Of a stretch of 64,000 nt of DNA, positions 3,620-57,482 are shown one piece after another. Source of the stretch: Bacteroidota bacterium (GTDB lineage Bacteria; Bacteroidota; Bacteroidia; SXHM01). The translations under genes were made by a program, and so were the position numbers. The notes below the pieces were generated by a model. The model searched no databases. It saw nothing but the letters and a program-made list of their open reading frames with translations, and was not told the origin of the DNA. How positions within the stretch are numbered: the stretch's first letter is position 1; every line of letters begins with the position of its first letter. The DNA is taken from contig CANJWH010000008.1 in NCBI GenBank assembly GCA_947478465.1, positions 4,008 to 68,007 on the forward strand, given 5' to 3'.

Positions 3620-4450
3620 TTAGATATTATCCGCAATACTGTCTTCTGTTCTTATGAAATAAATTAGTGATATTATTAATAATACAAAAGATAGTAATAC
3701 TGAAATAAGATAATAGGGATTAAAAACTTCCTGTATGCCAATGCTCCACCTGAATAGTTCTATAAATCCTGCCATTGGATTAAGATAGATAAGATTTGAA
3801 AACTTTTCAGGAATAATGCTTACAGGATAAAAAACAGGCGTAAACCAAATTCCGAAATTAATTAAAAAAGGGATGATGTGATTCAAATCCCTGTTTTTTA
3901 TTGTGGCTGCACTAAGTATGAGCATAACAGCAGTTGAAAATACAATTGTGATTGCAACTATTAGCGGACTGAAAATTATTTGCCACCCGATATTTATCTG
4001 AAAAAAAATTAACAGACAGATTAATAAAACCAAGGTTACTCCAAACTCAACCAAAGCCACCAGCACTTTAGACAACGGCAAAATTATTTTCGGAAAATAC
4101 AACTTACGGATTAAATCCTGATTATTAGTTAAGCTTGTGCTTCCTTGCGAAAAAATATAATTAAAAAGGTTCCATAGCAATACACCGCTTAAAACAAATA
4201 ATACATACGGGTAGTCATTCTTGACCTCGAGAAGCACTGAAAAAAATAGGCTAAAAACAATAACTGCTGTTACAGGTTGAACAATAGTCCAAGCCAAACC
4301 TAAATACGTTTGCGCGTATTTTACTTTTAAATCGCGTTTGGCGAGTGTTAGAATTAATGCTCTGTGCTGCACTACTTTTTTAAAATAATCCGCTAACGAA
4401 TCCTGTTCGGAACTGATAATCCTGGTAGGCAGGATTTTAATTTCTTCCAT
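3620..4450 (-). CDS. ABC-2 type exporter permease (Wzm/TagG/KpsM-like polysaccharide or glycolipid export)
   Basis: 276 aa. The cytoplasmic N-terminus carries RDLKVKYAQTYLGLAWTIVQP, typical of ABC-2 permeases, followed by about 6 hydrophobic spans. It is the first gene of the minus-strand operon. Confidence 0.8.
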   Translation of the reverse strand: MEEIKILPTRIISSEQDSLADYFKKVVQHRALILTLAKRDLKVKYAQTYLGLAWTIVQPVTAVIVFSLFFSVLLEVKNDYPYVLFVLSGVLLWNLFNYIFSQGSTSLTNNQDLIRKLYFPKIILPLSKVLVALVEFGVTLVLLICLLIFFQINIGWQIIFSPLIVAITIVFSTAVMLILSAATIKNRDLNHIIPFLINFGIWFTPVFYPVSIIPEKFSNLIYLNPMAGFIELFRWSIGIQEVFNPYYLISVLLSFVLLIISLIYFIRTEDSIADNI

Positions 4451-4480
4451 GTGGCAAAATTAGCATTTATAAAGGTACTT

Positions 4481-4504
4481 CAGATACCGTAAAAGTGGTA
4501 TCTG
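4481..4504. promoter_or_regulatory. Perfect 8-bp inverted repeat CAGATACC-N8-GGTATCTG in the divergent promoter region
   Basis: Read directly. It lies between the exporter/PhyH operon (-) and the thiolase gene (+). Operator candidate only. Confidence 0.3.
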
Positions 4505-4593
4505 AACAAGTGCAATCAATACTATTACAAACATAATTTTTTCTCGTTTGTTATAAATAGAGCAGGCTTATTCACCATTTTAATAATATAGCT

Positions 4594-25604: not shown

Positions 25605-26357
25605 ATGTCAAAGATTAACATTCTGGTGGTTGAGGACGAAGCCATTGTATCTAAGGATATACAGAACAGCCTTAAAAAATTAGGCTATAACGTAGTAGCT
25701 GCAGTAGATTCAGGCGAAGCTGCTATTGTTGCTGCAGAAGAACACAAACCAGATTTAGTAATGATGGACATTATGCTGAAAGGCGAATTGAGCGGTATTG
25801 AAGCGGCAGACCAAATCCGTCAGAAATTTGACGTTCCGGTTCTTTACCTTACTGCTTATGCAGATGAAAGTACACTTGCAAAAGCAAAGGTAACTGAGCC
25901 ATATGGCTATATTATCAAACCTTTTAAAGAAATTGATTTGCACACTACCATTGAAATGGCGTTGTACAAACATGGCAAAGAAAGTGAATTACGTAAAGAG
26001 CGAGATATGTATTCGTCAATTGTTCTGGATAAAAATACCAGCGATTGCATTTTCGTAAAATCAAATTCCCGCTTAGTAAAACTAAAAACAGCCGACATCA
26101 TGTATGTAGAGGCATTGAAAGATTATGTGATTATTCATGCAGTTGGAGCAAAATACACCGTTCATTCCACCATGAAAGATATGCAGTCGAGCCTTATGGA
26201 CAAGGATTTTATTCGTGTTCACAGATCTTATATTGTGCGTATTGACAAAATTGCAGCTATTGACTACCCAAATCTGATTATGGAAGACGACAAAAAAGTA
26301 ATTCCTATTGGTGGTTCTTATAAAGATGATTTAAACAGCAGGCTGAAGTTTGTATAG
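25605..26357 (+). CDS. LytTR-family response regulator (CheY receiver + LytTR DNA-binding domain)
   Basis: 250 aa. Receiver ILVVEDE...DLVMMDIMLKG...IIKPF. C-terminal LytTR pattern IMYVEALKDYVIIH...IRVHRSYIVRIDKI. Confidence 0.9.
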   Translation: MSKINILVVEDEAIVSKDIQNSLKKLGYNVVAAVDSGEAAIVAAEEHKPDLVMMDIMLKGELSGIEAADQIRQKFDVPVLYLTAYADESTLAKAKVTEPYGYIIKPFKEIDLHTTIEMALYKHGKESELRKERDMYSSIVLDKNTSDCIFVKSNSRLVKLKTADIMYVEALKDYVIIHAVGAKYTVHSTMKDMQSSLMDKDFIRVHRSYIVRIDKIAAIDYPNLIMEDDKKVIPIGGSYKDDLNSRLKFV

Positions 26358-32348: not shown

Positions 32349-35300
32349 ATGGAAAAACTTATACGCCCTATGAATACTATATTGAAAAGTGCAACCCTGT
32401 TGCTTGCAGTATTCCTTACTTCAATCAATTTTAACACAGTATCGGCCCAATGCCCATTGACCGTTTCTGCTACCATGACACCGGTTACATGCTTTGGCGG
32501 TAGTGACGGAACAATAACCATTACAGGAACCGGAGGCATTGCTCCTTATGACTTTGGTGTGGTTCAGGTACCTTCTATCTTCCTGACATTCACTGATAAT
32601 ATATTAACCCACACCTTTACCGGTTTGCCCGCAGGAAACTACATTGTGGTATTTGAATCAGACAATAGCGGTTGCGGGTCCACCCAGGTTTCTACAACAA
32701 TAACTATAACAGAACCGGCAGCAGGAGTAACAACTGCAATGTCATTCACACCTGTTTCGTGTAACGGAGGCACAAATGGAACAGCAACTGCAACACCATC
32801 GGGTGGAACTCCTGGCTATACATATCTCTGGTCGCCAAGCGGACAAACCACACAAACAGCTACGGGCTTATCAGCAGGTGTTCAAAACGTATTAATTACT
32901 GATGCACTTGGTTGTACAACCAATGGTACAGTTACTATTACTCAACCTGCAGGAATGAGCCAAAGCAGAATCGTTACTAATGTTTTGTGCTTCGGTCAAA
33001 GCAATGGTTCAATAGATTTATCAGTAAGCGGAGGAACAGCACCATATACTTACCTTTGGTCTAACGGTGCAACCACACAAGATATAGGTGGGCTTGCAGC
33101 AGGAAACTATTCGGTTGTAATTACTGATGCAAACAGCTGTACACTTAACTCGGGAACTATTACCGTTTCACAACCAACTATTCTTACTAGTTCCGAAACA
33201 CATGTGAATGTAAACTGTGCAGGATCTAATACCGGCTCTATTGATGTAACCGTTTCAGGCGGAACATCACCCTACACGTATTTATGGAATACCGGTCAAA
33301 CTACTCAGGATTTATCTGGCTTAGCACCAGGATTTTATTCAGTAAACATTATTGATGCCAACGGTTGCACCTCAACAAGAAGTGCAACCATTACGCAACT
33401 ATCTAATCTTAGTGTTTCATCCTTGATAACTGACGCTACCTGCGGAGCAAGTGATGGGGCAGTAAATGTTACTGTTTCAGGAGGCTCTGGCAATTATACT
33501 TACTCATGGTCACCCGGAGGAGCAACCACAGAAGACATCAGCGGTCTTAATGCAGCAGTTTATACAGTTACTGTTACGGATATAACATTGGGTTGCACAC
33601 AAACATTAGCAAACAATGTTCAGAACTCAGGCAATCCTAATATTACAGGTACAGTAACTAATGCAACAAATTGCAACGCTACTAATGGTGCAATTGACAT
33701 TACCGTTACAGGAGGATTGGGTAGCTATTCATATTTATGGTCACCAAGCGGGCAGATTACTCAAGACCGAATCAATCTTGCAGTAGGAAGCTATACTGTT
33801 ACTGTAACAGATAACACAACTGGTTGTATAGCCATTGCAACTTTTGCTGTATCATATAATAATGCAATGACGCTTACTGGTTCTGTAACCAACTCTAATT
33901 GCAGCAGCAACAGCGGTGCAGTTGATTTAACTGTAACAGGCGGAACTGCTCCTTTAACTTATCTGTGGAGCAACGGAGTAACAACACAAGACATAAGCAG
34001 CATTGGTGCCGGAGTGTATTCAGTTACCGTTACCGATGCCAATGGTTGCACCGCTAACAGCGTATTCCCTGTAAGCGGCTCAAATGGCATTACTGTTACC
34101 TCGGTTGAAACAGATATTACCTGTGCCGGAGCGGGTAACGGAAGTGTTAATCTTACGGTTTCAGGTGGTTCAGGAAACTACACTTATTCATGGTCAAATG
34201 GAGCAACAACACAAGATATCAGCAACCTTTCACCCGGAACCTACACCGTTTCCGTTACTGATGCTGTAAGTTTATGTTCTTCATTCTTATCATTTACCAT
34301 AACACAACCTTCAGGATATAACGGATTTGTTGATATTACACATGTAAGTTGCAATGGCGGAAGCAACGGAAGCATTGATCTTACAATTGCTGGCGCAACT
34401 CCTCCTTACTCTTATTCATGGTCACCTGGCGGTCAAACCACACAAGACCTAAGCGGGCTTAGTGTTGGAACTTATATAGTTACTATTACAGATGCTAACG
34501 GTTGCACCGCAGGAGCAGGGTTTACAATTACTCAACCTGCTGCAATATCTTTAACCGAAACTCACGTAAATGTTAGCTGTGCAGGTGGTGCAAATGGTTC
34601 TGTTAACCTGAGTGTATCAGGCGGAAGCGCACCATACAGTTATGGATGGAGCAACGGAGCAACAACACAAGACATTAGTGGACTTATTGCGGGATTCTAT
34701 AATGTTACCGTTACAGATGCCAATGGATGCTCATCAATCCTTAATGTTACCATAACTGAAATCTCAAACCTGACTATTAATATAGTTAGTGTTGTGAATT
34801 CTCAGTGTAATGCAAATACAGGCTCAATAGATATAACAATTACAGGAGGCTCAGGAAACTATACTTATTCATGGACGCCAGGATCTTTAACTACACAGGA
34901 TTTAACAGGACTTGCTCCAGGAACCTATAATGTTACAGTTACAGATGTTAATTTGGGTTGTGTTCAATCAACCGCTATCAATGTATCAGAAACAGGCGCT
35001 CCAAACGTTTCGGGAGTTGTAACTCCTGCTACCAATTGTGCGGCTACCAATGGAGCTATTGATATTACTGTTTCAGGAGGCTCAGGTAATTATTCCTACT
35101 TATGGTCACCGGGCGGGCAAACTACACAAGACCGCACATCACTTGCTCCGGGAACATATACCGTTACTGTTACAGATGTAACAACCGGATGCTCAGGACT
35201 CTTTAATTATACAGTTACAGCAGGAAGCGGAATATCACTTACGGCAAGTATTACAAACTCAAGCTGCAGCACAAGCACAGGCGCGATTGATTTAAGTGTA

Positions 35301-38300
35301 AGTGGAGGCACAGCTCCTTATACTTATTTATGGACCAACGGAGCAACTACCCAAGATATAAGTGGATTAGCAGGCGCTATTTATGGAGTAACTGTTACCG
35401 ATGCAAATGGATGCAGTTCAAATTCGTTCTTTACTGTAAGCGAAACCTCAGCATTTACACTTTCAGTTGCAATCACTAATATTAATTGTGCAGGAGGAAC
35501 CAATGGGGCTATTAACCTTACAGTTTCCGGAGGTTCAGGAAACTATACCTATACTTGGAGTAACGGAGCAACAACACAGGATTTATCATCCATTCCTGCA
35601 GGTTCATATTCAGTTAGCGTTACAGATGTAACAACTGGTTGTACTTCACTTGCAATTTATACTGTTACTGAGCCAACAACTATTACACTTTCTGCCAATG
35701 TAACCAATATTCCATGTAACGGAAGCGGAACAGGTTCTATTGACATTACTGTAGCTGGCGGAACTCCAACCTATACTTATTCATGGTCAAATGGAGCAAC
35801 AACACAAGACATCAGCGGACTTGCTTTAGGGACTTACACCCTGACTTTTTCTGACGCAAATGGCTGCGGTGGGGTTTATTCTTATACTGTCTCTCAACCA
35901 ACTTCTATAACTATTACCGAAACACATACAAACGTAACTTGTAACGGACTTAACAACGGAACTATTGATATAACCGTTTCAGGAGGAACTGCCCCATACA
36001 GTTATTTGTGGGCCCCAAGCGGACAGACAACACAAGACCGCACCGCTCTTGCACCTAATACATATACTGTAACAGTTACAGACATCAACGGATGTAATTC
36101 AAACTTATCGGTTACCATTACTCAACCTGCTGTTCTTACTGCATCAGAAACACATACTAATATAAACTGCTTCGGGGCAAACAACGGAGCAATTGATGTA
36201 ACGGTAAGCGGTGGCACAGGTCCTTTCACCTATTTATGGACACCAAGCGGACAAACTACACAAGACCGCGCAGGCCTTGCTCCTGGAACATATTCAGTAG
36301 CAATAACTGATGCAAACGGATGTACAACTTCAGTTAATAATGTAATAATCACTCAACCAGGGTCAGCACTTACTGCTTCTATTTCAGCCAGCGGCAATGT
36401 TACTTGCTTTGGACTATGTAATGGTACAGCAACTGTTAGTGCAAGTGGCGGAAGCGGTGGTTATACTTACTTATGGACACCGGGTGGACAAACTACACAA
36501 ACAGCTATTAACCTTTGTCCAAGCATTTACAACGTTACAGTAACTGATGCAAGTGGTTGTACTGCTGCTGCAACTGTAACAATTATTCAGCCTGCTGATT
36601 TAGTTGCTTCAGCTACAGGAACAGATGCAAGTTGCAACGGAGTTTGTGACGGAACTGCTATAGTTACCCAAGTTGGTGGAACAAGCCCTTTCACTTATTT
36701 CTGGTTGCCTACCGGACCAGCAACTAACACAGTAAATAATCTTTGTGCAGGAACTTTCCAGGTTGTTGTAACTGACTTTAATGGATGTGACGACACAGCT
36801 TCCGTTACCATTAACCAACCTGCTCCTATCACTTATACTTCAAGTGCAACACCGGTTCTTTGTAACGGTCAATGTAACGGAACTGCAACAGTTACTCCAA
36901 GCGGAGGATTTGTTCCATACACTTATCTGTGGAGTAATGGTCAAACTACTCAAACGGCTACCAATCTTTGCTTAGGTATCGTTACCTGCTTAATTACAGA
37001 TGCAAACGGGTGTTCAACAACTGCAACAGTTGCAGTTCCAAGTAACTCAGCTATTGTAATTGATGTTACTTCAAACGAACCAACCTGCAATGGAAGCTGT
37101 GATGGTTTTATAAACACAAGTATTTCAGGAGGTACGGGACCTTATACTTACTTATGGACACCTGGTGGTGAAACCACAAACTCAATAAATAATCTTTGTG
37201 CAGATACCTACACGCTTGCTGTTACCGATGCAAATGGTTGTCAGCAGGTAGTTGTTGTTATTCTTTCAGAACCTACACCGATTGTAATCACACCAAGCAC
37301 AACATCTGCAAGTTGTAATGGTGTTTGTGATGCTTCTGCAAGTGTTTCTGTATCAGGTGGCACTGCTGGCTATACCTACTTATGGTCTCCGGGCGGGCAA
37401 ACAACAAGTTCATTAAGCAATATCTGTGCAGGCTTCTATACAGTTACTGTAACAGATGCCAATGGTTGCCAGCAAACAGCTAATGTCAATGTTTCTGAGC
37501 CAACTGCTATAACCTTAACTACCAACGTTAATAATATCTCCTGCAACGGAAACACAGATGGTTCAATTGACTTGGTTGTTTCAGGCGGAACACCAGGCTA
37601 TACATACTTGTGGGATAGCGGACAAACTTCTCAAGACCTGAGCAATCTTACTCCGGGAACTTATTCAGTAACTGTAACTGATGCTAATAATTGTACAGCT
37701 ACTACTTCGATAACTATTACTGAACCCGGTATAGTTGATATGACTTACACTTCAACTCCTGCAACCTGCGGACAATGTGACGGAACAGCTACACTTTCAG
37801 TTATTGGTGGAACTGCTCCTTACACCTACTTGTGGGGAACAGGAGCCACTACCGCAACAGCAACCAATCTGTGTGCCGGTGTTTATCCTGTTTTTGTAAC
37901 AGATGCTAATGGTTGCACAGGCAGCTTTGCTGTTGCAATCAGCAACACAGGCGGGCCAGCTTCAGTTACAGTTTCAACAACCGATGCAAGCTGTTTTGGT
38001 ATATGCGATGGTTCTGCAACGGTTACAGGTGTAACAGGCGGAATTGCACCTTACAATTATCTGTGGGTACCGGGTGGAGCTACTACTACTTCATTGTCAG
38101 GATTGTGTTCAGGAACCTATTTTGTTCAGGTTTCCGATACTAACAACTGCACACTTACACAAACTGTTACCATTTCTGAGCCTTTAGAAATACAGGCAAA
38201 CGAAGTTGTTGTTACGGCTGATTGTGGAGTTTGTAACGGAAGTATAACACTTGCTCCTTCAGCAGGACAAGCTCCTTATACCTTCTTGTGGGGTGGTGGC

Positions 38301-41300
38301 GAAACTACAAATTCAATAACCGGTCTATGTGCCGGAGTTTACTCTGTTGATATCACGGATGCCAACGGTTGCGTTGAATCACTTGCATTCCCTGTAAACA
38401 ACGTTCCTAATTCAAGCATTTCAGTTTCATCAACATCTGCAACCTGCAGCGGAAGCTGTGACGGAACAGCAACAGTTACTGTAACTCTTGGAACTGCTCC
38501 TTTCACTTATCTTTGGAGTGATGGACAAACTACTGCTACAGCAAGTAATCTTTGTGCAGGAGTTTATACTGTTCAGGTTACAGATGCTTCAAGTTGCATT
38601 GCAACCGACATCATAACCGTAAACGAACCTGCTTTATTAGCATTAAGTCTTCCCGTAGTTTCCAACATTACTTGTAACGGAGCATGCGATGGAACAATTT
38701 CTATCATTCCTTCAGGCGGAGTATTACCATATTCTTATCTGTGGAACGATGGACAAACTACTGCAACAGCAACCAATCTTTGCCCTGGAGCTTATAGCGT
38801 AGTTGTAACTGATGCTAACGGTTGCACATCTACATGGTCTGACATTCCGGTCACAGAACCTACACCTATTGTATTGTCAACTTCATGGACAGACGCTTTA
38901 TGTTTTAGTGTTTGTGATGGAACAGCTACAGTTACAGCAACTGGTGGTACAGGAGCATATACTTACTTGTGGACACCAGGAAACCAAACCGATGCAACAG
39001 CAACCGGACTTTGTGCAGGAACATACATTGTTCAGGTAACAGATGCAAATGGATGTGTTCAGGGAACTTCAGTATTAATTGGTGAACCAACCGAAATCAC
39101 ACTTTCAACTAACATGCTGCCAGCAAGTTGTAATGGAGTTTGCGATGCTTCGGCTTGGGTAGTTGCTACAGGTGGAACTCCTTCGTTAGTTACAGGATAC
39201 ACTTATTCATGGAATCCAACTTCTCAAACAGGTGATACTGCTATTGCTTTGTGTGCAGGTATTTACACTGTTACCATTACTGACTCTCTTGGTTGTGCGC
39301 AAACAGCTACAATAAACGTTGCTGAACCTACACCTGTTACCATGACATTTGCTGTAAATAACGTAACCTGCTTTGGTTTCTGTAATGCTGATATTACTGC
39401 AACACCTGCGGGTGGAACTGCTCCTTACACATATCAGTGGCTGAACACTACAGGATTGGAAACAATAGACTTTGTTGACAGCCTTTGCCCTGGTGAATAC
39501 TATTTATTAGTTACAGATGCAAACGGGTGCAGAGGTCAGGATACAGCAATTGTAACCGAACCAACTTTACTTGTATTTGATGCAACAGTAGTTAACAATG
39601 TAAGCTGTGGAGGATTGTGCGATGGTACTGCGTCAGCAACTCCAAGCGGTGGAACACCGGGATACTCTTACCTGTGGTCGCCTTCAGGCCAAACAACTGC
39701 AACTGCAATTAACCTGTGTGCCGGAACCTACACTGTAACAGTTACAGATGCCAACGGTTGCGACACAACACAAACCATTGTAATCACCGAGCCGCCAATT
39801 CTTACTCTTTACCCTACTACAACCAACGCAAGTTGTGGTGGTGTGTGTGACGGAACAGCAACAGCTCACGTAGGTGGAGGAACACTTCCTTATCAATATG
39901 CATGGAGTGACGGACAAACCGACAGCACTGCAGTAGGTCTTTGCGCAGGAAATTACAGTGTGCTCATTACTGATGGAAACGGTTGTACTATTTCTGTCAA
40001 TGTAATTATTCTTGAACCACCAATTCTGACATCTTCAATAACTGATTTCAGTGAAATACTTTGCGCAGGAAGCTGCGATGCCTATGCAACTGTTGATGTA
40101 AACGGTGGTGTTCCTCCTTATTCTTATCTATGGAATAACGGACAAACAGATAGCACTGCAATTGATCTTTGTATTGGAACATATAGTGTTGTTATTACCG
40201 ATGCTATCGGTTGCAATACCACTGCTACAGTCATTATAAGCGACCAGAATGCCTTGGCAACTGCAATTCCGTTGTTCAACAACGTAAGCTGCTTTGGCCT
40301 GTGCGATGGAACCGCTACAGCAATAGCAACTGGAGGAGTTGCTCCTTACAGTTTTGTATGGAGTGACGGACAAAGCGCTGCAATGGCTACAAACCTTTGC
40401 CCTGGTACTTATACCGTTACTGTTACCGATGCTGCTAACTGCGTTTCAACTTCTACAATTGATATTACAGAACCTGAACTGCTTACTGCTTCTGCTACAG
40501 GTGTAAATGCAAGCTGCGGTGGTAATTGCGATGGAACTGCTACAGTAACACCTGCCGGTGGAACTCCTGTTTACTCCTACCTCTGGGTTCCAGGCGGACA
40601 AACAACAGCAACAGCTACCGGACTTTGTGCGGGTTCTTATACAGTAACTGTAACCGATGCTAATGGTTGTGACACTACTGCTACAATTGTTATTACAGAA
40701 CCTCCGATTATTGTAGCTTCTGCTTCAGTAACTGCACCAACTTGCACCAATACTAACAACGGAGCAGTTGACCTTTCAGTATCTGGCGGTGTTCCGGGTT
40801 ATACCTATTTATGGTCTAATGGAGCAACTACCGAAGACCTTAGCAATCTGCTTCCCGGAGTTTATACCGTAACCGTAACAGACAACATTGGTTGCTCTAA
40901 AACACTTATTGTAACAGTTGTTGAACAGATAGTAATTGATGCAAATGCAGGACCGGATATTACAATTTGTATCGGTGAACAGGTTCAGTTGCAGGCAACA
41001 GGCGGAAGCGGTTATCTGTGGACACCGGCTTCAGGATTAAATTACAACAACATTGATAATCCGGTTGCAACCATCACCACTACTACTACCTACATTGTTC
41101 AGGTTACCAACTTCAGTTGTGTGGATTACGATACCATCACTATTATCGTTAATCCTCTTCCTGTAATTGATGCAGGTGCAGGTGCCGAAATTCTTTCAGG
41201 AACTACCGTTCAGTTACAGGCTGGCGGTGCAGGAACTAACGGCACCTACACATGGTCACCGATAGATGGTTTAGATAATTGGGCTATCGCTAATCCTATT

Positions 41301-41657
41301 GCTTCACCAACTGAAACTACTATTTACTATGTAACAGGAACAGATGAAAACGGATGCTCGGCAACTGATTCATTAACCATTGAGGTATCGCCCGGAATTG
41401 TTTTCCCTGATGGTATCACACCAAATGATGACGGTAAAAACGACACCTGGATTATTGACTTTATCAATAACTTCCCTGAAGCAGTGGTAATGGTTTACAA
41501 CCGTTGGGGACAAGAGCTTTTCTATTCTAAAGGTTACGGAACACCTTGGGATGGAAGATACAAAGGTAAAGACCTGCCTGTAGGAACATACTACTATGTA
41601 ATTGACCTGCACAATGGTAAAGAACCTTATACCGGACCTATAACAATAGCGAGATAA
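32349..41657 (+). CDS. Giant cell-surface adhesin: about 38 SprB-type repeats plus a T9SS type B (gliding-motility-associated) C-terminal domain
   Basis: 3102 aa. Signal peptide. I counted about 38 units of about 75 aa, each ending (V/I)TDxNGC. C-terminus ITPNDDGKNDTWIIDF...VYNRWGQELF...WDGRYKGKDLPVGTYYYVIDL...GPITIAR fits the type B CTD pattern. Confidence 0.9.
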   Translation: MEKLIRPMNTILKSATLLLAVFLTSINFNTVSAQCPLTVSATMTPVTCFGGSDGTITITGTGGIAPYDFGVVQVPSIFLTFTDNILTHTFTGLPAGNYIVVFESDNSGCGSTQVSTTITITEPAAGVTTAMSFTPVSCNGGTNGTATATPSGGTPGYTYLWSPSGQTTQTATGLSAGVQNVLITDALGCTTNGTVTITQPAGMSQSRIVTNVLCFGQSNGSIDLSVSGGTAPYTYLWSNGATTQDIGGLAAGNYSVVITDANSCTLNSGTITVSQPTILTSSETHVNVNCAGSNTGSIDVTVSGGTSPYTYLWNTGQTTQDLSGLAPGFYSVNIIDANGCTSTRSATITQLSNLSVSSLITDATCGASDGAVNVTVSGGSGNYTYSWSPGGATTEDISGLNAAVYTVTVTDITLGCTQTLANNVQNSGNPNITGTVTNATNCNATNGAIDITVTGGLGSYSYLWSPSGQITQDRINLAVGSYTVTVTDNTTGCIAIATFAVSYNNAMTLTGSVTNSNCSSNSGAVDLTVTGGTAPLTYLWSNGVTTQDISSIGAGVYSVTVTDANGCTANSVFPVSGSNGITVTSVETDITCAGAGNGSVNLTVSGGSGNYTYSWSNGATTQDISNLSPGTYTVSVTDAVSLCSSFLSFTITQPSGYNGFVDITHVSCNGGSNGSIDLTIAGATPPYSYSWSPGGQTTQDLSGLSVGTYIVTITDANGCTAGAGFTITQPAAISLTETHVNVSCAGGANGSVNLSVSGGSAPYSYGWSNGATTQDISGLIAGFYNVTVTDANGCSSILNVTITEISNLTINIVSVVNSQCNANTGSIDITITGGSGNYTYSWTPGSLTTQDLTGLAPGTYNVTVTDVNLGCVQSTAINVSETGAPNVSGVVTPATNCAATNGAIDITVSGGSGNYSYLWSPGGQTTQDRTSLAPGTYTVTVTDVTTGCSGLFNYTVTAGSGISLTASITNSSCSTSTGAIDLSVSGGTAPYTYLWTNGATTQDISGLAGAIYGVTVTDANGCSSNSFFTVSETSAFTLSVAITNINCAGGTNGAINLTVSGGSGNYTYTWSNGATTQDLSSIPAGSYSVSVTDVTTGCTSLAIYTVTEPTTITLSANVTNIPCNGSGTGSIDITVAGGTPTYTYSWSNGATTQDISGLALGTYTLTFSDANGCGGVYSYTVSQPTSITITETHTNVTCNGLNNGTIDITVSGGTAPYSYLWAPSGQTTQDRTALAPNTYTVTVTDINGCNSNLSVTITQPAVLTASETHTNINCFGANNGAIDVTVSGGTGPFTYLWTPSGQTTQDRAGLAPGTYSVAITDANGCTTSVNNVIITQPGSALTASISASGNVTCFGLCNGTATVSASGGSGGYTYLWTPGGQTTQTAINLCPSIYNVTVTDASGCTAAATVTIIQPADLVASATGTDASCNGVCDGTAIVTQVGGTSPFTYFWLPTGPATNTVNNLCAGTFQVVVTDFNGCDDTASVTINQPAPITYTSSATPVLCNGQCNGTATVTPSGGFVPYTYLWSNGQTTQTATNLCLGIVTCLITDANGCSTTATVAVPSNSAIVIDVTSNEPTCNGSCDGFINTSISGGTGPYTYLWTPGGETTNSINNLCADTYTLAVTDANGCQQVVVVILSEPTPIVITPSTTSASCNGVCDASASVSVSGGTAGYTYLWSPGGQTTSSLSNICAGFYTVTVTDANGCQQTANVNVSEPTAITLTTNVNNISCNGNTDGSIDLVVSGGTPGYTYLWDSGQTSQDLSNLTPGTYSVTVTDANNCTATTSITITEPGIVDMTYTSTPATCGQCDGTATLSVIGGTAPYTYLWGTGATTATATNLCAGVYPVFVTDANGCTGSFAVAISNTGGPASVTVSTTDASCFGICDGSATVTGVTGGIAPYNYLWVPGGATTTSLSGLCSGTYFVQVSDTNNCTLTQTVTISEPLEIQANEVVVTADCGVCNGSITLAPSAGQAPYTFLWGGGETTNSITGLCAGVYSVDITDANGCVESLAFPVNNVPNSSISVSSTSATCSGSCDGTATVTVTLGTAPFTYLWSDGQTTATASNLCAGVYTVQVTDASSCIATDIITVNEPALLALSLPVVSNITCNGACDGTISIIPSGGVLPYSYLWNDGQTTATATNLCPGAYSVVVTDANGCTSTWSDIPVTEPTPIVLSTSWTDALCFSVCDGTATVTATGGTGAYTYLWTPGNQTDATATGLCAGTYIVQVTDANGCVQGTSVLIGEPTEITLSTNMLPASCNGVCDASAWVVATGGTPSLVTGYTYSWNPTSQTGDTAIALCAGIYTVTITDSLGCAQTATINVAEPTPVTMTFAVNNVTCFGFCNADITATPAGGTAPYTYQWLNTTGLETIDFVDSLCPGEYYLLVTDANGCRGQDTAIVTEPTLLVFDATVVNNVSCGGLCDGTASATPSGGTPGYSYLWSPSGQTTATAINLCAGTYTVTVTDANGCDTTQTIVITEPPILTLYPTTTNASCGGVCDGTATAHVGGGTLPYQYAWSDGQTDSTAVGLCAGNYSVLITDGNGCTISVNVIILEPPILTSSITDFSEILCAGSCDAYATVDVNGGVPPYSYLWNNGQTDSTAIDLCIGTYSVVITDAIGCNTTATVIISDQNALATAIPLFNNVSCFGLCDGTATAIATGGVAPYSFVWSDGQSAAMATNLCPGTYTVTVTDAANCVSTSTIDITEPELLTASATGVNASCGGNCDGTATVTPAGGTPVYSYLWVPGGQTTATATGLCAGSYTVTVTDANGCDTTATIVITEPPIIVASASVTAPTCTNTNNGAVDLSVSGGVPGYTYLWSNGATTEDLSNLLPGVYTVTVTDNIGCSKTLIVTVVEQIVIDANAGPDITICIGEQVQLQATGGSGYLWTPASGLNYNNIDNPVATITTTTTYIVQVTNFSCVDYDTITIIVNPLPVIDAGAGAEILSGTTVQLQAGGAGTNGTYTWSPIDGLDNWAIANPIASPTETTIYYVTGTDENGCSATDSLTIEVSPGIVFPDGITPNDDGKNDTWIIDFINNFPEAVVMVYNRWGQELFYSKGYGTPWDGRYKGKDLPVGTYYYVIDLHNGKEPYTGPITIAR
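33195..35918 (+). repeat. Two tandem 1362-bp super-repeats (each six SprB repeats) inside the adhesin gene
   Basis: Blocks start at 33195 (ETHVNVNCAGSNTGSIDV), 34557 (ETHVNVSCAGGANGSVNL) and 35919 (ETHTNVTCNGLNNGTIDI). Both full blocks are exactly 454 codons and are collinear repeat by repeat. Confidence 0.8.
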
Positions 41658-41749: not shown

Positions 41750-42703
41750 ATGAAAAAGCTATACACTCTTCTTACAGTAATTGTTTGCACTGTTTCAGGC
41801 ATCAAAGCCCAACAAGTGCCGCAGTATGCACAATACATGCTGAACAATTATATCCTCAACCCTGCTGTATCGGGCACCGAGGATTATTACGAAGTAAAAT
41901 CAAACAACCGCTACCAGTGGGTAGGTGTTACTGATGCTCCCCGCACGTATGTGCTAAGCGTGCATGGTCCGCACCGCAAATACAACATGGGGTTTGGCGG
42001 CTCAGTGTATAGTGATATTACCGGCCCTACCAGCCGTACAGGTGCATACCTCTCCTATGCCTATCATGTGAAACTTTCACAAAAACTGAAACTCTCTTTC
42101 GGACTTGGATTTGGTGTAATGCAGTTTAAAATTGACGGCTCAAAAGTTACTTTGAAAGAAGGTAACGACCCTGCAATGAGCAACGGAGTTATGAGTGTTA
42201 TTGCTCCTGATGCAACTTTCGGAATTCAGCTCTACACCAAAAAATTCTATTTTGGAATTTCTGCTCCGCAGTTAATCGGTAATAAGTTGAAATTTTTTGA
42301 CAATGTATCTGATGCACAGAGCCGTCTTGCTCGCCATCTTCTAATCATGGGAGGTTATACCTTTAACCTTGGCGACAACTGGACCATACAACCTTCCTTC
42401 CTGTTAAAATATGTTAGCCCTGTTCCAATGCAAATTGATCTTGGCCTTAAAATCGGTTACCGCGATATAGTTTGGGCAGGAAGTGCTTTCCGAATTAAAG
42501 ATGCCGTTTCGGTAATGGCGGGGTTTAACATTGGTAAAAATGTTATTCTTGGTTATGCTTACGATTTCCCGATGTCAAGCCTCAAAAACTACAGCAGCGG
42601 AAGCCACGAAGTAATGATTGGCGCACGCTTTGCAAAAATCCGACACAACGATACTCCTCCGGCTGAAAGCCCGGTGGAAACTCCAACAAGTAAAGAAAAG
42701 TAA
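41750..42703 (+). CDS. PorP/SprF-family type IX secretion system membrane protein
   Basis: 317 aa. Signal peptide, then AQQVPQYAQYMLNNYILNPAVSG, the characteristic PorP/SprF N-terminus. Beta-barrel-like alternating pattern. Lies immediately downstream of a type B CTD protein. Confidence 0.85.
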   Translation: MKKLYTLLTVIVCTVSGIKAQQVPQYAQYMLNNYILNPAVSGTEDYYEVKSNNRYQWVGVTDAPRTYVLSVHGPHRKYNMGFGGSVYSDITGPTSRTGAYLSYAYHVKLSQKLKLSFGLGFGVMQFKIDGSKVTLKEGNDPAMSNGVMSVIAPDATFGIQLYTKKFYFGISAPQLIGNKLKFFDNVSDAQSRLARHLLIMGGYTFNLGDNWTIQPSFLLKYVSPVPMQIDLGLKIGYRDIVWAGSAFRIKDAVSVMAGFNIGKNVILGYAYDFPMSSLKNYSSGSHEVMIGARFAKIRHNDTPPAESPVETPTSKEK

Positions 42704-53374: not shown

Positions 53375-53418
53375 ATGATTAGCTCAATAGAAACAATTAA
53401 CAGTATAAAGGCAGTCAG

Positions 53419-53484
53419 TCATTGCGAGGGTTTTTCACCCGAAGCAATCTTATTGAGAGATTGCTTCGCTGAAGCTCGCAATGA
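53419..53484. repeat. REP-like nested inverted repeat (double-stem hairpin) in the mrdA-rodA spacer
   Basis: TCATTGCGAG (53419-28) pairs with CTCGCAATGA (53475-84). GAAGCAATCT (53441-50) pairs with AGATTGCTTC (53458-67). It resembles the CATTGCGAG...GAAGCAATC intergenic repeat class I recall from Bacteroidota genomes, which often yields spurious small ORFs. Confidence 0.6.
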
Positions 53485-53496
53485 CGACAAAACAGA

Positions 53497-54762
53497 ATGA
53501 GACAACAGAAATCCATATTTGATAACATAGACTGGGTGATGGTTTCCATCTTTCTGGTAATGATTTTCCTGGGCTGGATAAGTATTTATGCTGCCGTGTA
53601 TAACGAGGAGCACAAAAGCATTCTGGATACTTCGGAAAATTATGGTAAACAGTTGATCTGGATAGCAAGTTCCATATTTATAGCAGCCGTTATTCTGCTT
53701 ATTGACGGAAAGTTTTATACCATTTCTGCATATCCTGTTTACGGGCTGGTGATGCTGCTGCTTATTCTGGTATTGGTTTTCGGGCGCGAGGTTGCGGGAA
53801 GTAAATCGTGGTTTGAAATAGGCAGTAATTTTCGCATTCAGCCGGCCGAGTTCGGGAAGTTTGCCACTGCGCTGGTGGTTGCCAAATACCTGAGCACAAT
53901 GAACATTAAGTTTGAGGACAACAGAACCAAACTGATTACAGCTGCTTTTATTGCCACCCCTGCCCTGCTTATTCTGTTGCAGAACGATACAGGCTCGGCT
54001 TTGGTTTACGGGGCTTTTTTGTTTGTGCTGTATCGCGAAGGTTTATCGGGAAATTTTTTGATGGCGGGTGTAGCGGTGGTAACGGTGTTTATTGTTACGC
54101 TGCTGTTTGACCCAAAGACCATGATGTGGATTGTAGGGGTTATTGCCTTCCTGATTTTTATTGCGGGCAAACGCAACTGGAAGAATGCAATGCTGATTGG
54201 CGGCACTGCGGTGGTATTTTCGGGCATATCCTATAGTGTAGGTTATGTGGTTGACAATGTATTGGAGATACATCAGAAAACACGTATTAATGTAATGCTG
54301 GGCAAGGAAGACGACCCGAAAGGCGTTGGTTATAACGTGAACCAAAGTAAAATTGCCATTGGCTCGGGAGGTTTTAGCGGCAAAGGTTTTTTAAACGGCA
54401 CGCAAACCAAATACAAGTTTGTGCCGGAGCAAAGCACCGATTTTATTTTTTGCACGGTGGGCGAAGAGTGGGGCTTTATGGGCAGCTTTGTGGTGATTGT
54501 GTTGTTCCTGTTTTTATTAGTGCGTATTATTTATGTAGCCGAGCGGCAGAAATCAACCTTTACACGCATCTATGGCTACGGGGTGGCTTCTATTCTGTTT
54601 TTCCACTTTGCGGTAAATATTGCCATGACCATAGGGCTTGCTCCCGTTATCGGTATTCCGTTGCCCTTTTTCAGCTACGGGGGTTCATCGCTGTGGGCTT
54701 TTACCATTCTGCTGTTTGTGTTTATTAAGCTGGATGCTTACAGGATGCAGTTGTTGAGGTAA
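53497..54762 (+). CDS. rodA: Rod shape-determining protein RodA (SEDS glycosyltransferase)
   Basis: 421 aa, about 10 TM segments. FRIQPAEFGKF, VPEQSTDFIF and IGIPLPFFSYGGSS are FtsW/RodA/SpoVE motifs. Confidence 0.9.
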   Translation: MRQQKSIFDNIDWVMVSIFLVMIFLGWISIYAAVYNEEHKSILDTSENYGKQLIWIASSIFIAAVILLIDGKFYTISAYPVYGLVMLLLILVLVFGREVAGSKSWFEIGSNFRIQPAEFGKFATALVVAKYLSTMNIKFEDNRTKLITAAFIATPALLILLQNDTGSALVYGAFLFVLYREGLSGNFLMAGVAVVTVFIVTLLFDPKTMMWIVGVIAFLIFIAGKRNWKNAMLIGGTAVVFSGISYSVGYVVDNVLEIHQKTRINVMLGKEDDPKGVGYNVNQSKIAIGSGGFSGKGFLNGTQTKYKFVPEQSTDFIFCTVGEEWGFMGSFVVIVLFLFLLVRIIYVAERQKSTFTRIYGYGVASILFFHFAVNIAMTIGLAPVIGIPLPFFSYGGSSLWAFTILLFVFIKLDAYRMQLLR

Positions 54763-54851
54763 GGAAGCTACTCAATCCTATCCGAAATGCCGGATTGGAT
54801 TAAGTTATTCTCTTCATTGCTATCTGCAATTACCAACCACTCAAAATCAGA

Positions 54852-55313
54852 CACTTTATTCCTTTCGTGGTTTCGGTACCACACTGAGGAGGTCAACTTA
54901 TTCCTATGCCCGTCTCCTTTTCGCACTGCGGGGGACACTTTATTCCTATGTCCGTCCCCGATACACATTGCGGATGACACTTTATTCCCATCCGCAAACC
55001 AAGATAGGAATGAAGCGAATACTTTATTCCTATATCCGTCTCTGCTTCGCACTGCGGAGGGCACTTCATTCCCATCTGCAAAACAAGATAGGAATGAAGC
55101 TGGCACTTTATTCCTATATCCGTCTCCGTTTCGCACTGAGGAATACACTTCATACCAATCTGCAAACCAAGATAGGAATGAAGTGAGCACTTTATTCCCA
55201 TGTCCGTCTCCGTTTCGCACTGCAGAGGGTACTTCATTCCTATCATGGTTTCGGCACCAACCTGCGGAAGGCGATTTATTCCAAATCGAAAAGCCTGTTT
55301 GCAGTAAATCAAT
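54852..55313. repeat. Tandem array of 11 units of exactly 42 bp (three unit classes sharing the 14-nt core CACTTYATTCCYAT)
   Basis: Unit starts at 54852, 54894, 54936, 54978, 55020, 55062, 55104, 55146, 55188, 55230 and 55272, with no indels. Class order is C-A-A-B-A-B-A-B-A-C-degenerate. It lies between convergent rodA and the ppiD-like gene. Confidence 0.85.
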
Positions 55314-55334
55314 TATTTGAATTTGATACCAAAA

Positions 55335-55363
55335 GAAAAGCCCCGCCATTGGCGGGACTTTTC
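55335..55363 (-). terminator. Stem-loop terminator for the ppiD-like gene (possibly bidirectional)
   Basis: GAAAAGCCCCGCC-attg-GGCGGGACTTTTC (one mismatch). T-rich on both sides. Lies 20 nt downstream of the minus-strand stop at 55383. Confidence 0.6.
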
Positions 55364-55382
55364 TTTTATCAATAGTAATCGT

Positions 55383-57482
55383 TTAGTAGAATTTCACGCG
55401 GTTATCTTTAACCTCTGCTTTGTCTTTCAGTGCTTCGTACACTTCGTAATCGGCACGTGAGGCAAGGGTTTGTTCCAGTTGTTTTTTAGCAGCAGTAAAG
55501 TCAGTTACTTCGGGTGCTTCCACCACATTGTCAACATACACTACATACACACCTGCCAAACCTTTTACCGGTTTAGAAACTGCGGCAGCCTTTAATGCTG
55601 AAATAGTGCCCAGCACTTCGGGTTCTTTACCCATACCAGGTATTGAACCTGCGCTGAAAACTACGTTTTGTGCCGTTTCAACAGGGGCATTCATTTTTGC
55701 GGCAAGGTCATCAACTGATGGTTTTGCAGCAAGAGCAGCATCAAATTCTTTTATGAATTGTTCTGCTTTCTTTTCTTTACGCACTTCGGCTTCCAGTTCT
55801 TCTTTAATGCTTTCAAGTGGCTTAACACCTTTCTCGTATTTCTCAACAAGAACAACAACTACATATTTGCTTCCTACTTCATATACATCCGATACATCGC
55901 CTTTTTTAGCCGTGTTATATGCCCACTGAATTATAGGGCGTGGATTATCCAACCCGGCAACTTTTGCTTCCATTGGTTTAATGTTTGCGGCAATGCGCAC
56001 ATTGTAACCTGCTTCGGTTGCTGCAGCTTCAAATGTTTCGAGCGTGCGATTTTTAGTAGAGAAATCGCTTGCTTTAGAATAAATGTTCTGGAAGGTTTTG
56101 TCGCTTGGCTCGGTAAGGCGTTCCACTGTTCCTATGTTAAGCTTGCGGCTTTCTTTGCTTCTGTCAAGAATCTCAATCAGGTGAATACCAAATTGTGATT
56201 CAACAATAGGCATATCACCTTTTTTGCCATTGAAGCAGGCATCGTTAAAAGGAGCAACCATAACGTTTTCTTTAAACCAGCCAAGGTCGCCACCATTTGC
56301 ACCTGAACCGGCATCGGTTGAAAGAGCTTTGGCCAATTCGGCAAAATTGTTTTTTGATTTAATTACTTTTTTAAGACTGTCGGCTTTAGCTTTAACAAGC
56401 TCAGCATTTCCGCCTTCCACTTTTAAAAGAATGTGGCGGGCTTTAACTGAGTCAACAGCCATTTTAGTTCCAAGAAGTTTAGATACTTTCCAGCTTTCGT
56501 TTTCCAGATAAGGACCAGCAACGGTTCCAACCACAGCTTTTTTAAGGGTATCAACAGCAGCAGGAAGTGCTGATTCAGCATACCACATTGCCTTATAAGG
56601 CTTATCTGAATTGATGTTGATAAACAACGTATCGTTATCGGTGAGTTTAAATTCTTCAGTTGTTTTGTCAATCCATTTTTTTGCAGCCTGATTATCATCA
56701 TCAGAAGGTTTGATGTCAAAGGCCACATATTTAAGGTCAACAGCTTCGTCCTGTTTGTATTGCTCTTTATAGTTGTTGGCAGCATAATATGCCTTAATCT
56801 CTGCATCGGTAACTGCAACGCTGGTGTCGGTTGAAGCAGCATAACGCTTTGCCACAAAACGGATGTTTGCCATTTTGTTTTTAGCTACGTTATCGGCTTT
56901 TGCCTCAGCTGTGGTGATGTAAAGACCTTTTTTTACTAAGGTGTTGTATTTGGTGTAAACCTGTTGTTTTTTCAAATCTTTTTCAAATGCCAACCAGCGT
57001 TTTTTGGTGTCACCTGATTCGTCTTCGTCCATTCTTTTAAGAAAAGCGATTACGTTGGCAGGGTTAAACTCACCTGTTTGCGGGTTGCCGAAAGCCTGAC
57101 GCACCTGCGGGCTTGGATTTGGCCCCTGAATTATGTCAAATAATTCTTCAGCGCTAACACTTAGCCCCAATTCTTCGTGCTGGCTTCCCATAACAATCTC
57201 CTGAATTTGTTGTTCCCAGGTCTGGTTGCGGATAGCTTCTTTAGTAGCTTCGTCAATATTAGCCTGCTGGTAGTTGGCTTTGTAGTTTTCAATAGCTTCC
57301 TGAACTTTCAGTTCAAAATCCTGTCCTTCTATTTTTTGGCCGGCAATAATACCAACGTGGGTTTCGCCACGTTTAGAGCTGCTGAAAATGGAGCTGGGAT
57401 CAATAACAAACAGGGCAATACCAAGCCCAACGAATATAAGCGCTAAATAAGTTTTTTCTCTGATTTTCTGTAAAATTGACAT
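55383..57482 (-). CDS. Periplasmic chaperone / peptidyl-prolyl isomerase, PpiD-like (SurA-N plus parvulin domain)
   Basis: 699 aa. N-terminal TM anchor YLALIFVGLGIALFVI. Parvulin core ARHILLKV...DLGWF...FGIHLIEI. Confidence 0.8.
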   Translation of the reverse strand: MSILQKIREKTYLALIFVGLGIALFVIDPSSIFSSSKRGETHVGIIAGQKIEGQDFELKVQEAIENYKANYQQANIDEATKEAIRNQTWEQQIQEIVMGSQHEELGLSVSAEELFDIIQGPNPSPQVRQAFGNPQTGEFNPANVIAFLKRMDEDESGDTKKRWLAFEKDLKKQQVYTKYNTLVKKGLYITTAEAKADNVAKNKMANIRFVAKRYAASTDTSVAVTDAEIKAYYAANNYKEQYKQDEAVDLKYVAFDIKPSDDDNQAAKKWIDKTTEEFKLTDNDTLFININSDKPYKAMWYAESALPAAVDTLKKAVVGTVAGPYLENESWKVSKLLGTKMAVDSVKARHILLKVEGGNAELVKAKADSLKKVIKSKNNFAELAKALSTDAGSGANGGDLGWFKENVMVAPFNDACFNGKKGDMPIVESQFGIHLIEILDRSKESRKLNIGTVERLTEPSDKTFQNIYSKASDFSTKNRTLETFEAAATEAGYNVRIAANIKPMEAKVAGLDNPRPIIQWAYNTAKKGDVSDVYEVGSKYVVVVLVEKYEKGVKPLESIKEELEAEVRKEKKAEQFIKEFDAALAAKPSVDDLAAKMNAPVETAQNVVFSAGSIPGMGKEPEVLGTISALKAAAVSKPVKGLAGVYVVYVDNVVEAPEVTDFTAAKKQLEQTLASRADYEVYEALKDKAEVKDNRVKFY

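Follow-up and report, generated by a model that had tools for sequence, protein, structure and literature searches.

A tandem array of 42- or 21-bp units downstream of rodA in Bacteroidota that appears to hold its register but not its sequence, and its possible reading as phased protein-binding sites

Introduction

The sopC site of the F plasmid is formed by 12 direct repeats of 43 bp, with an inverted repeat that is bound by SopB, and sopC-type centromeres in general comprise between 3 and 17 repeats in tandem, of 43 (44, 45) bp, every one of which includes an inverted repeat of 16 bp; the relatives found by the authors of that work are all on plasmids of Enterobacteriaceae (PMC3177203). The same authors explained the spacing by four helical turns, which place the sites on one face (PMC3177203). 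Here, we analyse an array of 42-bp units located at positions 54810-55313 of a 64,000-nt stretch of DNA (hereafter the window; positions 4,008 to 68,007 of contig CANJWH010000008.1, assembly GCA_947478465.1) from Bacteroidota bacterium (SXHM01 lineage), in the gap between rodA and a convergent ppiD-like gene, together with its counterparts in relatives. Like sopC and the iterons (about 21-22 bp), the array is built head to tail, from units of about 42-43 bp that each contain a short palindrome or core, with a precise spacing of about four or two turns and a less critical sequence between the sites; the number of units is 6-17 in the arrays described here versus 3-17 in the sopC relatives. Unlike those systems, it occupies a chromosomal gap between housekeeping genes, parA/parB and rep are missing from the reading frames scanned in the 64-kb window, and it has no sequence similarity to plasmids. 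We take the likeness to sopC and the iterons to be a resemblance in possible working and not in membership, and its sites to be putative binding sites.

Several other kinds of tandem or interspersed repeats bear on the comparison. CRISPR arrays have near-identical repeats of 23-55 nt with unique spacers and usually cas genes. Fineran et al. 2009 and Blower et al. 2012 reportedly described ToxI-like tandem repeats of about 36-45 nt that are followed by an intrinsic terminator; repeats of this kind are near-identical, 2-5.5 in number, and have a toxin gene next on the same strand. Lineage-specific palindrome sequences at orthologous sites are said to have been noted by Gilson et al. 1987 for repetitive extragenic palindromes (REPs) and bacterial interspersed mosaic elements (BIMEs). 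REPs are present in more than 100 copies per genome, and in BIMEs they alternate in orientation (PMC2817692). Within the Bacteroidota, BrickBuilt, a MITE (miniature inverted-repeat transposable element) from Porphyromonas gingivalis, has units of 23 nt, small inverted-repeat ends and 19 copies per genome (PMC4596501). Finally, arrays of the TIGR (tandem interspaced guide RNA) kind have units of about 36 nt, with two alternating repeats of 8-12 nt (or a palindromic stem) and two unique spacers of 9-12 nt flanked by box C/D (PMC12045711), and the published examples adjoin a tas gene for a Nop-domain protein (PMC12045711; bioRxiv 10.64898/2026.09.09.750476).

Results and discussion

The array in the window is formed by three classes of units

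Twelve head-to-tail units of 42 bp, all in register and with no indel, form the array. The preliminary description of this DNA had listed 11 units of exactly 42 bp; their starts, at 54852 + 42k (k = 0..10), were confirmed, and a degraded unit, also in register, was added at 54810-54851 (unit 0). The size of the gap between rodA and the ppiD-like gene (620 bp; 54763-55382) was also reproduced. Tandem Repeats Finder returned periods of 42, 84 and 168 at 54880-55244, with 0% indels and scores of 401-457 (for the 84-bp period, 3.7 copies, 82% matches, 0% indels and a score of 401). The core CACTTYATTCCYAT, with two mismatches at most, occurs 15 times in the window versus 2.05 +/- 1.45 times in shuffled sequence, and 0 of 100 shuffles reached 15; of these 15, 11 lie in register on the + strand, three represent inverted copies in class B units and one is a stray, at 46751. 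The division of the units into classes A, B and C, also proposed earlier, is real: over the 42 positions, 31-36 are shared between class A units, 36 between class B units and 32 between the class C units, but just 18-25 between class A and class B. Two features had been overlooked. One is the hairpin nature of the class B unit, which is formed by the core and its own inverted copy, making a palindromic stem of 13-14 bp around an 8-nt centre; cores in either orientation succeed one another at intervals of about 21 bp in these units, the core itself being non-palindromic and all of the units head-to-tail. The other is the position of the array, upstream of the shared terminator and, probably, inside the rodA transcription unit. 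Over its entire length, the gap has the same sequence (100% identity) in one NCBI metagenome-assembled genome (MAG) and two ENA metagenomes, which are independent assemblies; an assembly artefact, considered at the outset, is therefore unlikely, even if the three seem to have been built from short reads.

The register is kept across sequence-unrelated alleles

The regions downstream of rodA were gathered from relatives using RodA (same-genus rodA genes are 89-98% identical at the nucleotide level); the analysis covered some 64 kb of this genome and, for each relative, a maximum of 10 kb surrounding rodA, and the evidence as a whole is sequence comparison among metagenome assemblies. The comparison of the orthologous rodA-ppiD spacer, suggested earlier, revealed at least four sequence-unrelated array types and an empty allele among congeners. 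Type I is the array of the window (12 units of 42 bp); it is also found in L021 and L134, with 10 units of 42 bp and two A-B dimers, and in L135, with four A-B dimers rather than two and one exact fusion of 42-bp units. Type II (L043 and L137) has six units at exact 42-bp spacing around a palindrome of 8-14 bp, ACGATCGT, often within palindromes of 14-34 nt. Type III (L129, L130, L131, L132, L136 and L138) has six 42-bp units around AACACA-N6-TGTGTT. Type IV (L123 and L139) has 8 and 17 units, respectively, of 21 bp and of two classes. In the empty allele (L126, L127 and L128), the TAA of rodA is directly followed by the same terminator as in the window. The number of units shifts in steps of 42 or 84 bp between strains, and one fusion deletes exactly 42 bp; within a lineage, the arrays are stable, being identical across samples or showing 2 differences.

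The type of array does not follow the flanking genes, by which the window pairs with L126 (rodA 97.6% identical at the nucleotide level) and L021 with L129 (95.5%); L043 is more separate (about 90-92%), with L123 and L139 farther out. The sister lineages L021 and L129 carry types I and III, and the leader of L021 holds a single hairpin unit that resembles those of type III and is in register with L129; together, these imply that the gap was exchanged by recombination or that the polymorphism is old. As every branch has arrays, loss is the simplest account of the empty allele. An array persists at the 3'-end of rodA in at least five lineages, in one of which (L139) the downstream gene is different; the array thus travels with the 3'-end of rodA.

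The gaps of types II and III, both exactly 369 bp, are colinear column for column with zero indels, and are 86% identical in the leader and 95% in the trailer, but only 56% over the 252 positions of the array (111 mismatches). The left arms of orthologous units are about 60% alike versus about 40% for non-orthologous units (per-column counts), so that the six units of the two types are positional orthologues. In all six, nevertheless, the central palindrome differs between the two types, while being uniform within each array. A minimum spanning tree linking the in-register units of five arrays requires at least 381 substitutions and no internal indel; only L135 shows an indel, the last unit, a degenerate one, having lost 4 nt. 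In two other spacers, compared between the window and L021 as a small local control, we counted 31 substitutions and 1 indel, a ratio at which about a dozen indels would be expected in the arrays. The preliminary description had proposed, from the window alone, that length and phase are constrained while the sequence diverges, and the relatives support this far more strongly: since an exact register of 42 or 21 bp is kept without indels across sequence-unrelated alleles, the register is, by this comparison, constrained, and the sequence replaceable.

The short motifs are also conserved within their arrays. In type I, the best-conserved columns are those of the core, and the degenerate units of L021, which fold weakly (-0.9 to -4 kcal/mol), yet retain CTTCATTCCYATC. 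In type III, variation falls in the arms and in the 6-nt centre, and the half-sites ACACA/TGTGT do not change. Between the window and L021/L135, the consensus A and B units differ at 10 of 84 positions, five of them in a single linker, as compared with 21% of the third codon positions of rodA, which makes purifying selection on the array likely. On these comparisons, the element would be under selection for the length of its unit and for a short, array-specific motif, the motif being replaceable and the whole element losable.

An array without a function would share part of this picture. A neutral or selfish minisatellite could have arisen once, as a 21/42-bp repeat, downstream of rodA in the ancestor of the genus, and have been reshaped since then, within a convergent gap tolerant of junk, through slippage, unequal recombination and conversion of short tracts, the register being simply inherited. 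The locus does have the make-up of bacterial minisatellites, or variable-number tandem repeats (VNTRs), with tandem units within the range of about 10-100 bp and whole-unit steps in copy number (42 or 84 bp, or exactly 42 bp in the fusion); it is dispensable, as the rodA TAA of the closest relative directly meets the terminator; its type is discordant with the phylogeny of the flanking genes; and no partner gene is found nearby. Moreover, a minisatellite with a leader and a tail is known from a related member of the phylum, in BrickBuilt (PMC4596501). Neutral decay, however, should leave indels, and there are 0 against at least 381 substitutions versus about 1 per 31 in the other spacers. Nor would ordinary conversion make the cores uniform inside an array while the arms stay unit-specific and orthologous. 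In addition, the consensus units of type I have changed less between species than synonymous sites have, and arrays from independent samples of one lineage are identical, and hence not unstable. We regard a functionless minisatellite as somewhat unlikely. As to BrickBuilt itself, the array is like it in belonging to the same phylum and in being an intergenic, spacer-less tandem array with a leader and a tail, but differs in its 42- or 21-bp units and its single locus. Compared by eye with the empty allele, the array showed no terminal inverted repeats and no clear target duplication, just an ambiguous AA at both junctions, and was not taken to be a MITE.

A possible array of protein-binding sites in helical phase

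Taken together, the comparisons indicate that the locus is a non-coding, dispensable and allelic tandem array, a minisatellite in form, that holds its register and not its sequence. The reading that we favour, tentatively and as one possibility among several, is that of a phased array of putative protein-binding sites, two or four helical turns apart, in a build like that of sopC or the iterons. Each unit would then bear a short motif resembling a protein-binding site: in type I the 14-nt core, joined in class B units by its inverted copy about 21 bp off, in type II the palindrome and in type III the AACACA-N6-TGTGTT motif. A distance of 21 or 42 bp corresponds to 2.0 or 4.0 turns and would put every site on one face of the helix, where a partner protein, encoded away from the array, could bind cooperatively. 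Helix phasing is the simplest physical reason for holding 21 or 42 bp. The action at the level of DNA and the trans-acting partner are both inferred from the sequence; as the core has been replaced between lineages, the specificity of the partner should differ between lineages too.

Several observations weigh against this reading. The closest relative (rodA 97.6% identical) has the empty allele, in three samples, so that any function must be dispensable. No gene for a partner (ParB, Rep, helix-turn-helix or other) was recognized by Pfam among about 40 larger open reading frames (ORFs) of the window, a set that leaves out an ORF of 3102 aa and a few small ones. The array probably lies inside the rodA transcription unit, where a role as RNA would be equally natural. 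The relation of 21 to 42 bp could simply be inherited, with the 42-bp unit a dimer of 21-bp units. Finally, the tail of the class A unit is conserved as well, which a model of one site plus free spacer leaves unexplained.

A wider proposal, which we hold to be rather doubtful, is that the locus is a chromosomal phased platform with a lineage-specific core, working either as sopC- or iteron-like DNA or through unit-length RNAs measured by a ruler protein, and undergoing wholesale swaps of the core, with the two- or four-turn register kept, in step with an unlinked and fast-evolving partner; it could, for example, serve as a decoy and titrate a plasmid or phage protein of the Rep, ParB or repressor type. 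If true, this would add to Bacteroidota chromosomes a kind of element that has not been described for them. Intergenic tandem repeats of bacteria are usually filed as junk, as VNTR markers, as REP/BIME or as CRISPR. At this single orthologous locus, an exact 21/42-bp register persists through complete replacement of the sequence, with a core that is uniform in each array, and the element can still be lost, a pattern that would be the signature of spacing-dependent recognition by another component of the cell. Discovery of the partner would reveal a chromosomal architecture of the centromere or iteron kind, or a new array of small RNAs.

The array as a probable part of the rodA transcript

No promoter-like site or strong terminator was detected between the stop codon of rodA and the terminator at 55331-55367, the sole terminator-like match in this interval being a weak one at 54918-54934, and the Bacteroidetes-type promoter pattern (TTTG...TAnnTTTG) is absent in and near the gap. 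We infer from this that the array is co-transcribed with rodA, as a 3'-untranslated part of its transcript. A structured RNA and a protein-binding array are both possible. As an RNA element, the array would belong to a 3'-untranslated region of about 580 nt of the mre-pbp2-rodA operon, in which tandem hairpins acting in cis would bar 3'-5' exonucleases or read-through, in the manner of REP/BIME hairpins at the 3'-ends of E. coli operons. In keeping with this, in all alleles that have ppiD downstream, the array is preceded by the stop codon and followed by a strong intrinsic terminator, with no promoter-like site or further strong terminator in between; the gap folds far better than shuffled sequences (z = -10.1, + strand); the class B, type II and type III units form clear hairpins; and the arms of type II vary between units yet remain complementary. 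The hairpins, however, are not uniformly kept, several units of L021 having only about -1 to -4 kcal/mol. G.U pairs show no excess on the transcribed strand, being equally rare on either (12/121 versus 14/137), and the conserved stems are invariant in sequence, without covariation. In addition, a hairpin barrier in cis requires no exact period of 42 nt, and a search of 54300-55900 with Rfam cmscan (E <= 10) gave only matches that were driven by the terminator or at chance level, none at the gathering score and none beyond chance level inside the array. A cis-acting RNA element is thus, in our view, unlikely, and the protein-binding array is favoured over it.

As to the REP/BIME families themselves, the array is likewise a mosaic of a few palindrome-containing classes with regular spacing, at the 3'-end of an operon between convergent genes. 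It is unlike them in its head-to-tail units, in its non-palindromic type I core and in having no other copy in 64 kb. None of the window ORFs scanned encodes a RAYT (Y1 transposase), the cognate enzyme of these families.

The transcript could also be processed into small RNAs of unit length, the length being set by a bound protein whose gene lies elsewhere, as for tigRNAs, crRNAs or ToxI. A strict period, an array-specific core, hypervariable alleles and a terminator at the end are traits common to TIGR arrays (PMC12045711), and published TIGR arrays may lie upstream, downstream, on both sides or inside of the tas gene (bioRxiv 10.64898/2026.09.09.750476). Type II units, moreover, have a layout of conserved edge, variable stretch, conserved centre and variable stretch. 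Yet, the ORFs scanned in the window include no gene for a Nop-domain, Cas or ToxN-like protein; units repeat every 42 or 21 nt and not every 36; the type I units fall into a few near-identical classes and are not unique guides; the variable stretches of types II and III are just 5-10 nt long, and those of type II complement each other; and no toxin gene follows the terminator. Unit-length RNAs are, therefore, a very unlikely product of the locus.

The same features bear on formal membership. In common with TIGR and CRISPR arrays, this one has a strict period, short array-specific repeats, a hairpin-containing variant, a terminator at the end, and a sequence conservation too low for standard repeat annotation. 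It was rejected as a TIGR array on its period, on its short variable stretches, which are not unique, and on the lack of a Nop-domain protein among the ORFs scanned; and as a CRISPR array because its conserved core has 14 nt, its 'spacers' fall into three classes and no cas genes are present among those ORFs. With ToxI it shares tandem repeats followed by an intrinsic terminator. A type III toxin-antitoxin system was also rejected, the next gene past the terminator being the convergent ppiD-like gene and the units being diverged.

The array is non-coding

The ORFs of 193, 177, 139 and 72 aa reported earlier across the array were confirmed, and at least three public records (L001-L003) carry a hypothetical protein of 193 aa called over it, at 54768-55349 of the window on the - strand. 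The preliminary description had suggested a 14-aa repeat protein, which in its present form would be encoded by a gene, or a recently dead one, either in the 139-aa frame of the - strand (...IGMKCPPQCETETD...) or in + frame 1, which reads HFIPxxVSVSHCGG. In its favour, the differences between type I units pile up in every third column at one constant phase (45-53% versus 33% expected; permutation p = 0.008 to 0.2, depending on the set of units), several of the changes leave the amino acid unaltered in either candidate frame (GTC/GTT and TCC/TCG among them), and the 139-aa frame is open across ten units of the window. The phase, determined over 54852-55313, L021 and L135, is the wobble position of + frame 1 and of the minus 139-aa frame alike. 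No frame, however, is open in all of the alleles: the 139-aa frame, the best one in type I, has stops within the arrays of L021 and L135, and + frame 1 is stopped in every B unit. Types II, III and IV show neither a long ORF nor 3-periodicity; in the array of type II the longest ORF reaches 36 aa and in that of type III 37 aa, both arrays having stops in every frame. The third-codon-position test proposed earlier thus gave a weak bias in type I and nothing in the other types, far below rodA, in which 83% of the differences are at third positions. The ORF, in addition, begins 25 nt past the terminator, which leaves no room for a promoter.

Database searches also count against a repeat-protein gene. 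Pfam recognized no family in the array ORFs, and a protein search with the 193-aa ORF gave no match, not even to itself, possibly from filtering of repeats or biased composition, so that this counts as weak evidence. The 139-aa ORF, searched against 1.84 billion representatives, matched four low-complexity proteins with 13/14-aa repeats, two of which look eukaryotic by sequence; the four were rejected as homologues, being matches of periodic composition. The best short match, P0137 (226 aa), has 13-aa repeats (EIGVKAPSCEV...) and may be a spurious ORF over another repeat array. Read-through of the rodA stop codon into the array was also rejected: the 177-aa frame continues that of rodA in the window, and stops are met within 10-15 codons in L021 and L129. 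By all these comparisons the array is non-coding. The 193-aa 'hypothetical protein' of public MAGs is almost certainly not a gene, and a repeat-protein gene, living or recently dead, is most improbable. Coding ancestry, or an internal (GTNTCN)2 sub-repeat, may have left the weak 3-periodicity of type I.

The family was found at one locus only

Away from the array, and apart from the stray match at 46751, none of the cores, of any type, was found in the 64-kb window, and the other repeats of the window are all coding. When 185,579 genomes, one per species, were scanned for a pair of cores at a distance of 42 bp, the family was detected only at the orthologous locus of L021. These results, which cover the window and the species representatives, speak against the dispersed REP/BIME family that had been considered before. 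Otherwise, the two-core scan gave mostly 21-bp arrays across many phyla, which were not counted as relatives because the search pattern selects periods that divide 42; those of the Firmicutes, and similar ones, read as heptad repeats with G-M-K-S and are probably coding. Pattern scans of viral contigs, and BLAST searches of plasmid and phage collections, gave no real match to any array type, three viral matches to the type IV pattern being rejected as unrelated 21-bp repeats.

Among the 21-bp arrays, those of Saprospiraceae MAGs are intergenic and have the core RACTTCATTCCTRTTTGC (L019, 3091-3243; L029, 4474-4767; L018, 2239-2488; L009, 1802-2048); in L019 and L029 they sit between a gene for an EAD11-domain protein and a gene of 207 aa. 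The core shares 17 of 21 bases with the first half of the class B unit, an excess over chance that is marginal after correction for multiple testing and that concerns pattern-selected sequences. In unrelated phyla, at least two 21-bp arrays with different cores abut in phase (L013, 2860-3320; L017, 4278-4721; L005, 3945-4567; L028, 7215-7970), and some of these may encode heptad repeats (Firmicutes, G-M-K-S...).

The locus and its neighbourhood

The features of the gap and its flanking genes are listed in Table 1. The window is a stretch of housekeeping genes, with the order purH, mreB, mreC, mreD, pbp2, rodA, array, ppiD, yebC, and mreC, mreD, pbp2 and rodA on one side, and ppiD and yebC on the other, are the neighbours in all of the relatives. 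The leader resembles that of types II and III (TTATCCGGATA...TAAGTT), as judged by eye without formal alignment.

Table 1. Coordinates, in the window, of the array, its units and the elements that flank it.
Feature	Position	Strand
rodA (421 aa, FTSW_RODA_SPOVE), at the end of the mreB-mreC-mreD-pbp2-rodA row; its stop codon precedes the array	53497..54762	+
Leader with a hairpin of 11-bp stem (54774-54784 pairs with 54791-54801, one mismatch)	54763..54809	+
Unit 0, degraded, class-B-like (CTCTTCATTGCTATCTGCAA...), in register	54810..54851	+
Unit 1, class C (GTGGTTTCGGTACCAC hairpin)	54852..54893	+
Units 2-3, class A (tail CCGTCTCCnTTTCGCACTGCGGnGG, small CTCCG/CGGAG stem)	54894..54977	+
Unit 4, class B, inverted core at 55004-55017 (- strand)	54978..55019	+
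Unit 5, class A	55020..55061	+
Unit 6, class B, inverted core at 55088-55101	55062..55103	+
Unit 7, class A	55104..55145	+
Unit 8, class B, inverted core at 55172-55185	55146..55187	+
Unit 9, class A	55188..55229	+
Unit 10, class C	55230..55271	+
Unit 11, degenerate terminal unit (CGATTTATTCCAAATCG...)	55272..55313	+
Trailer, from array to terminator; similar in L021	55314..55330	+
Bidirectional intrinsic terminator (AAAAGAAAAGCCCCGCC ATT GGCGGGACTTTTCTTTT)	55331..55367	.
ppiD-like gene, 699 aa, SurA_N and Rotamase domains, convergent with rodA	55383..57482	-

Genes for gliding and type IX secretion are found farther off in the window. A giant ORF of 3102 aa (32349-41657), with many repeats of about 228 bp (76 aa) and followed by a PorP/SprF gene (41750-42703), is probably a surface protein of the type IX secretion or gliding machinery. 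At 25605-26357, 29 kb from the array and without any link to it, lies the gene for a response regulator of the LytTR type; LytTR proteins bind direct repeats about 21 bp apart.

Other repeats and insertions were noted next to rodA. The pbp2-rodA spacer (53418-53485) contains a long REP-like palindrome (GTCATTGCGAGG...CGAAGCAATCT..AGATTGCTTCG...CTCGCAATGAC), present in a single copy in the window and conserved in L126, L129 and L021, and a partial copy of it lies between the terminator and ppiD in L134 (at about 3340-3385). In L123 (RodA 95% identical at the amino acid level), a DUF433/DUF5615 gene pair is inserted at the 3'-end of rodA (3852-4535), and the last 96 nt or so of rodA are duplicated behind the pair (4440-4535), with the 21-bp array next; the 3'-end of rodA looks like a hotspot of site-specific insertion. 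In two distant relatives, with RodA about 60% identical, tandem repeats begin at the rodA stop (L052, 2161-2588; L050, 3760-3832), one of the two having 4.7 copies of a 91-bp unit (rodA tail plus hairpin) and the other five copies of a 14-bp unit.

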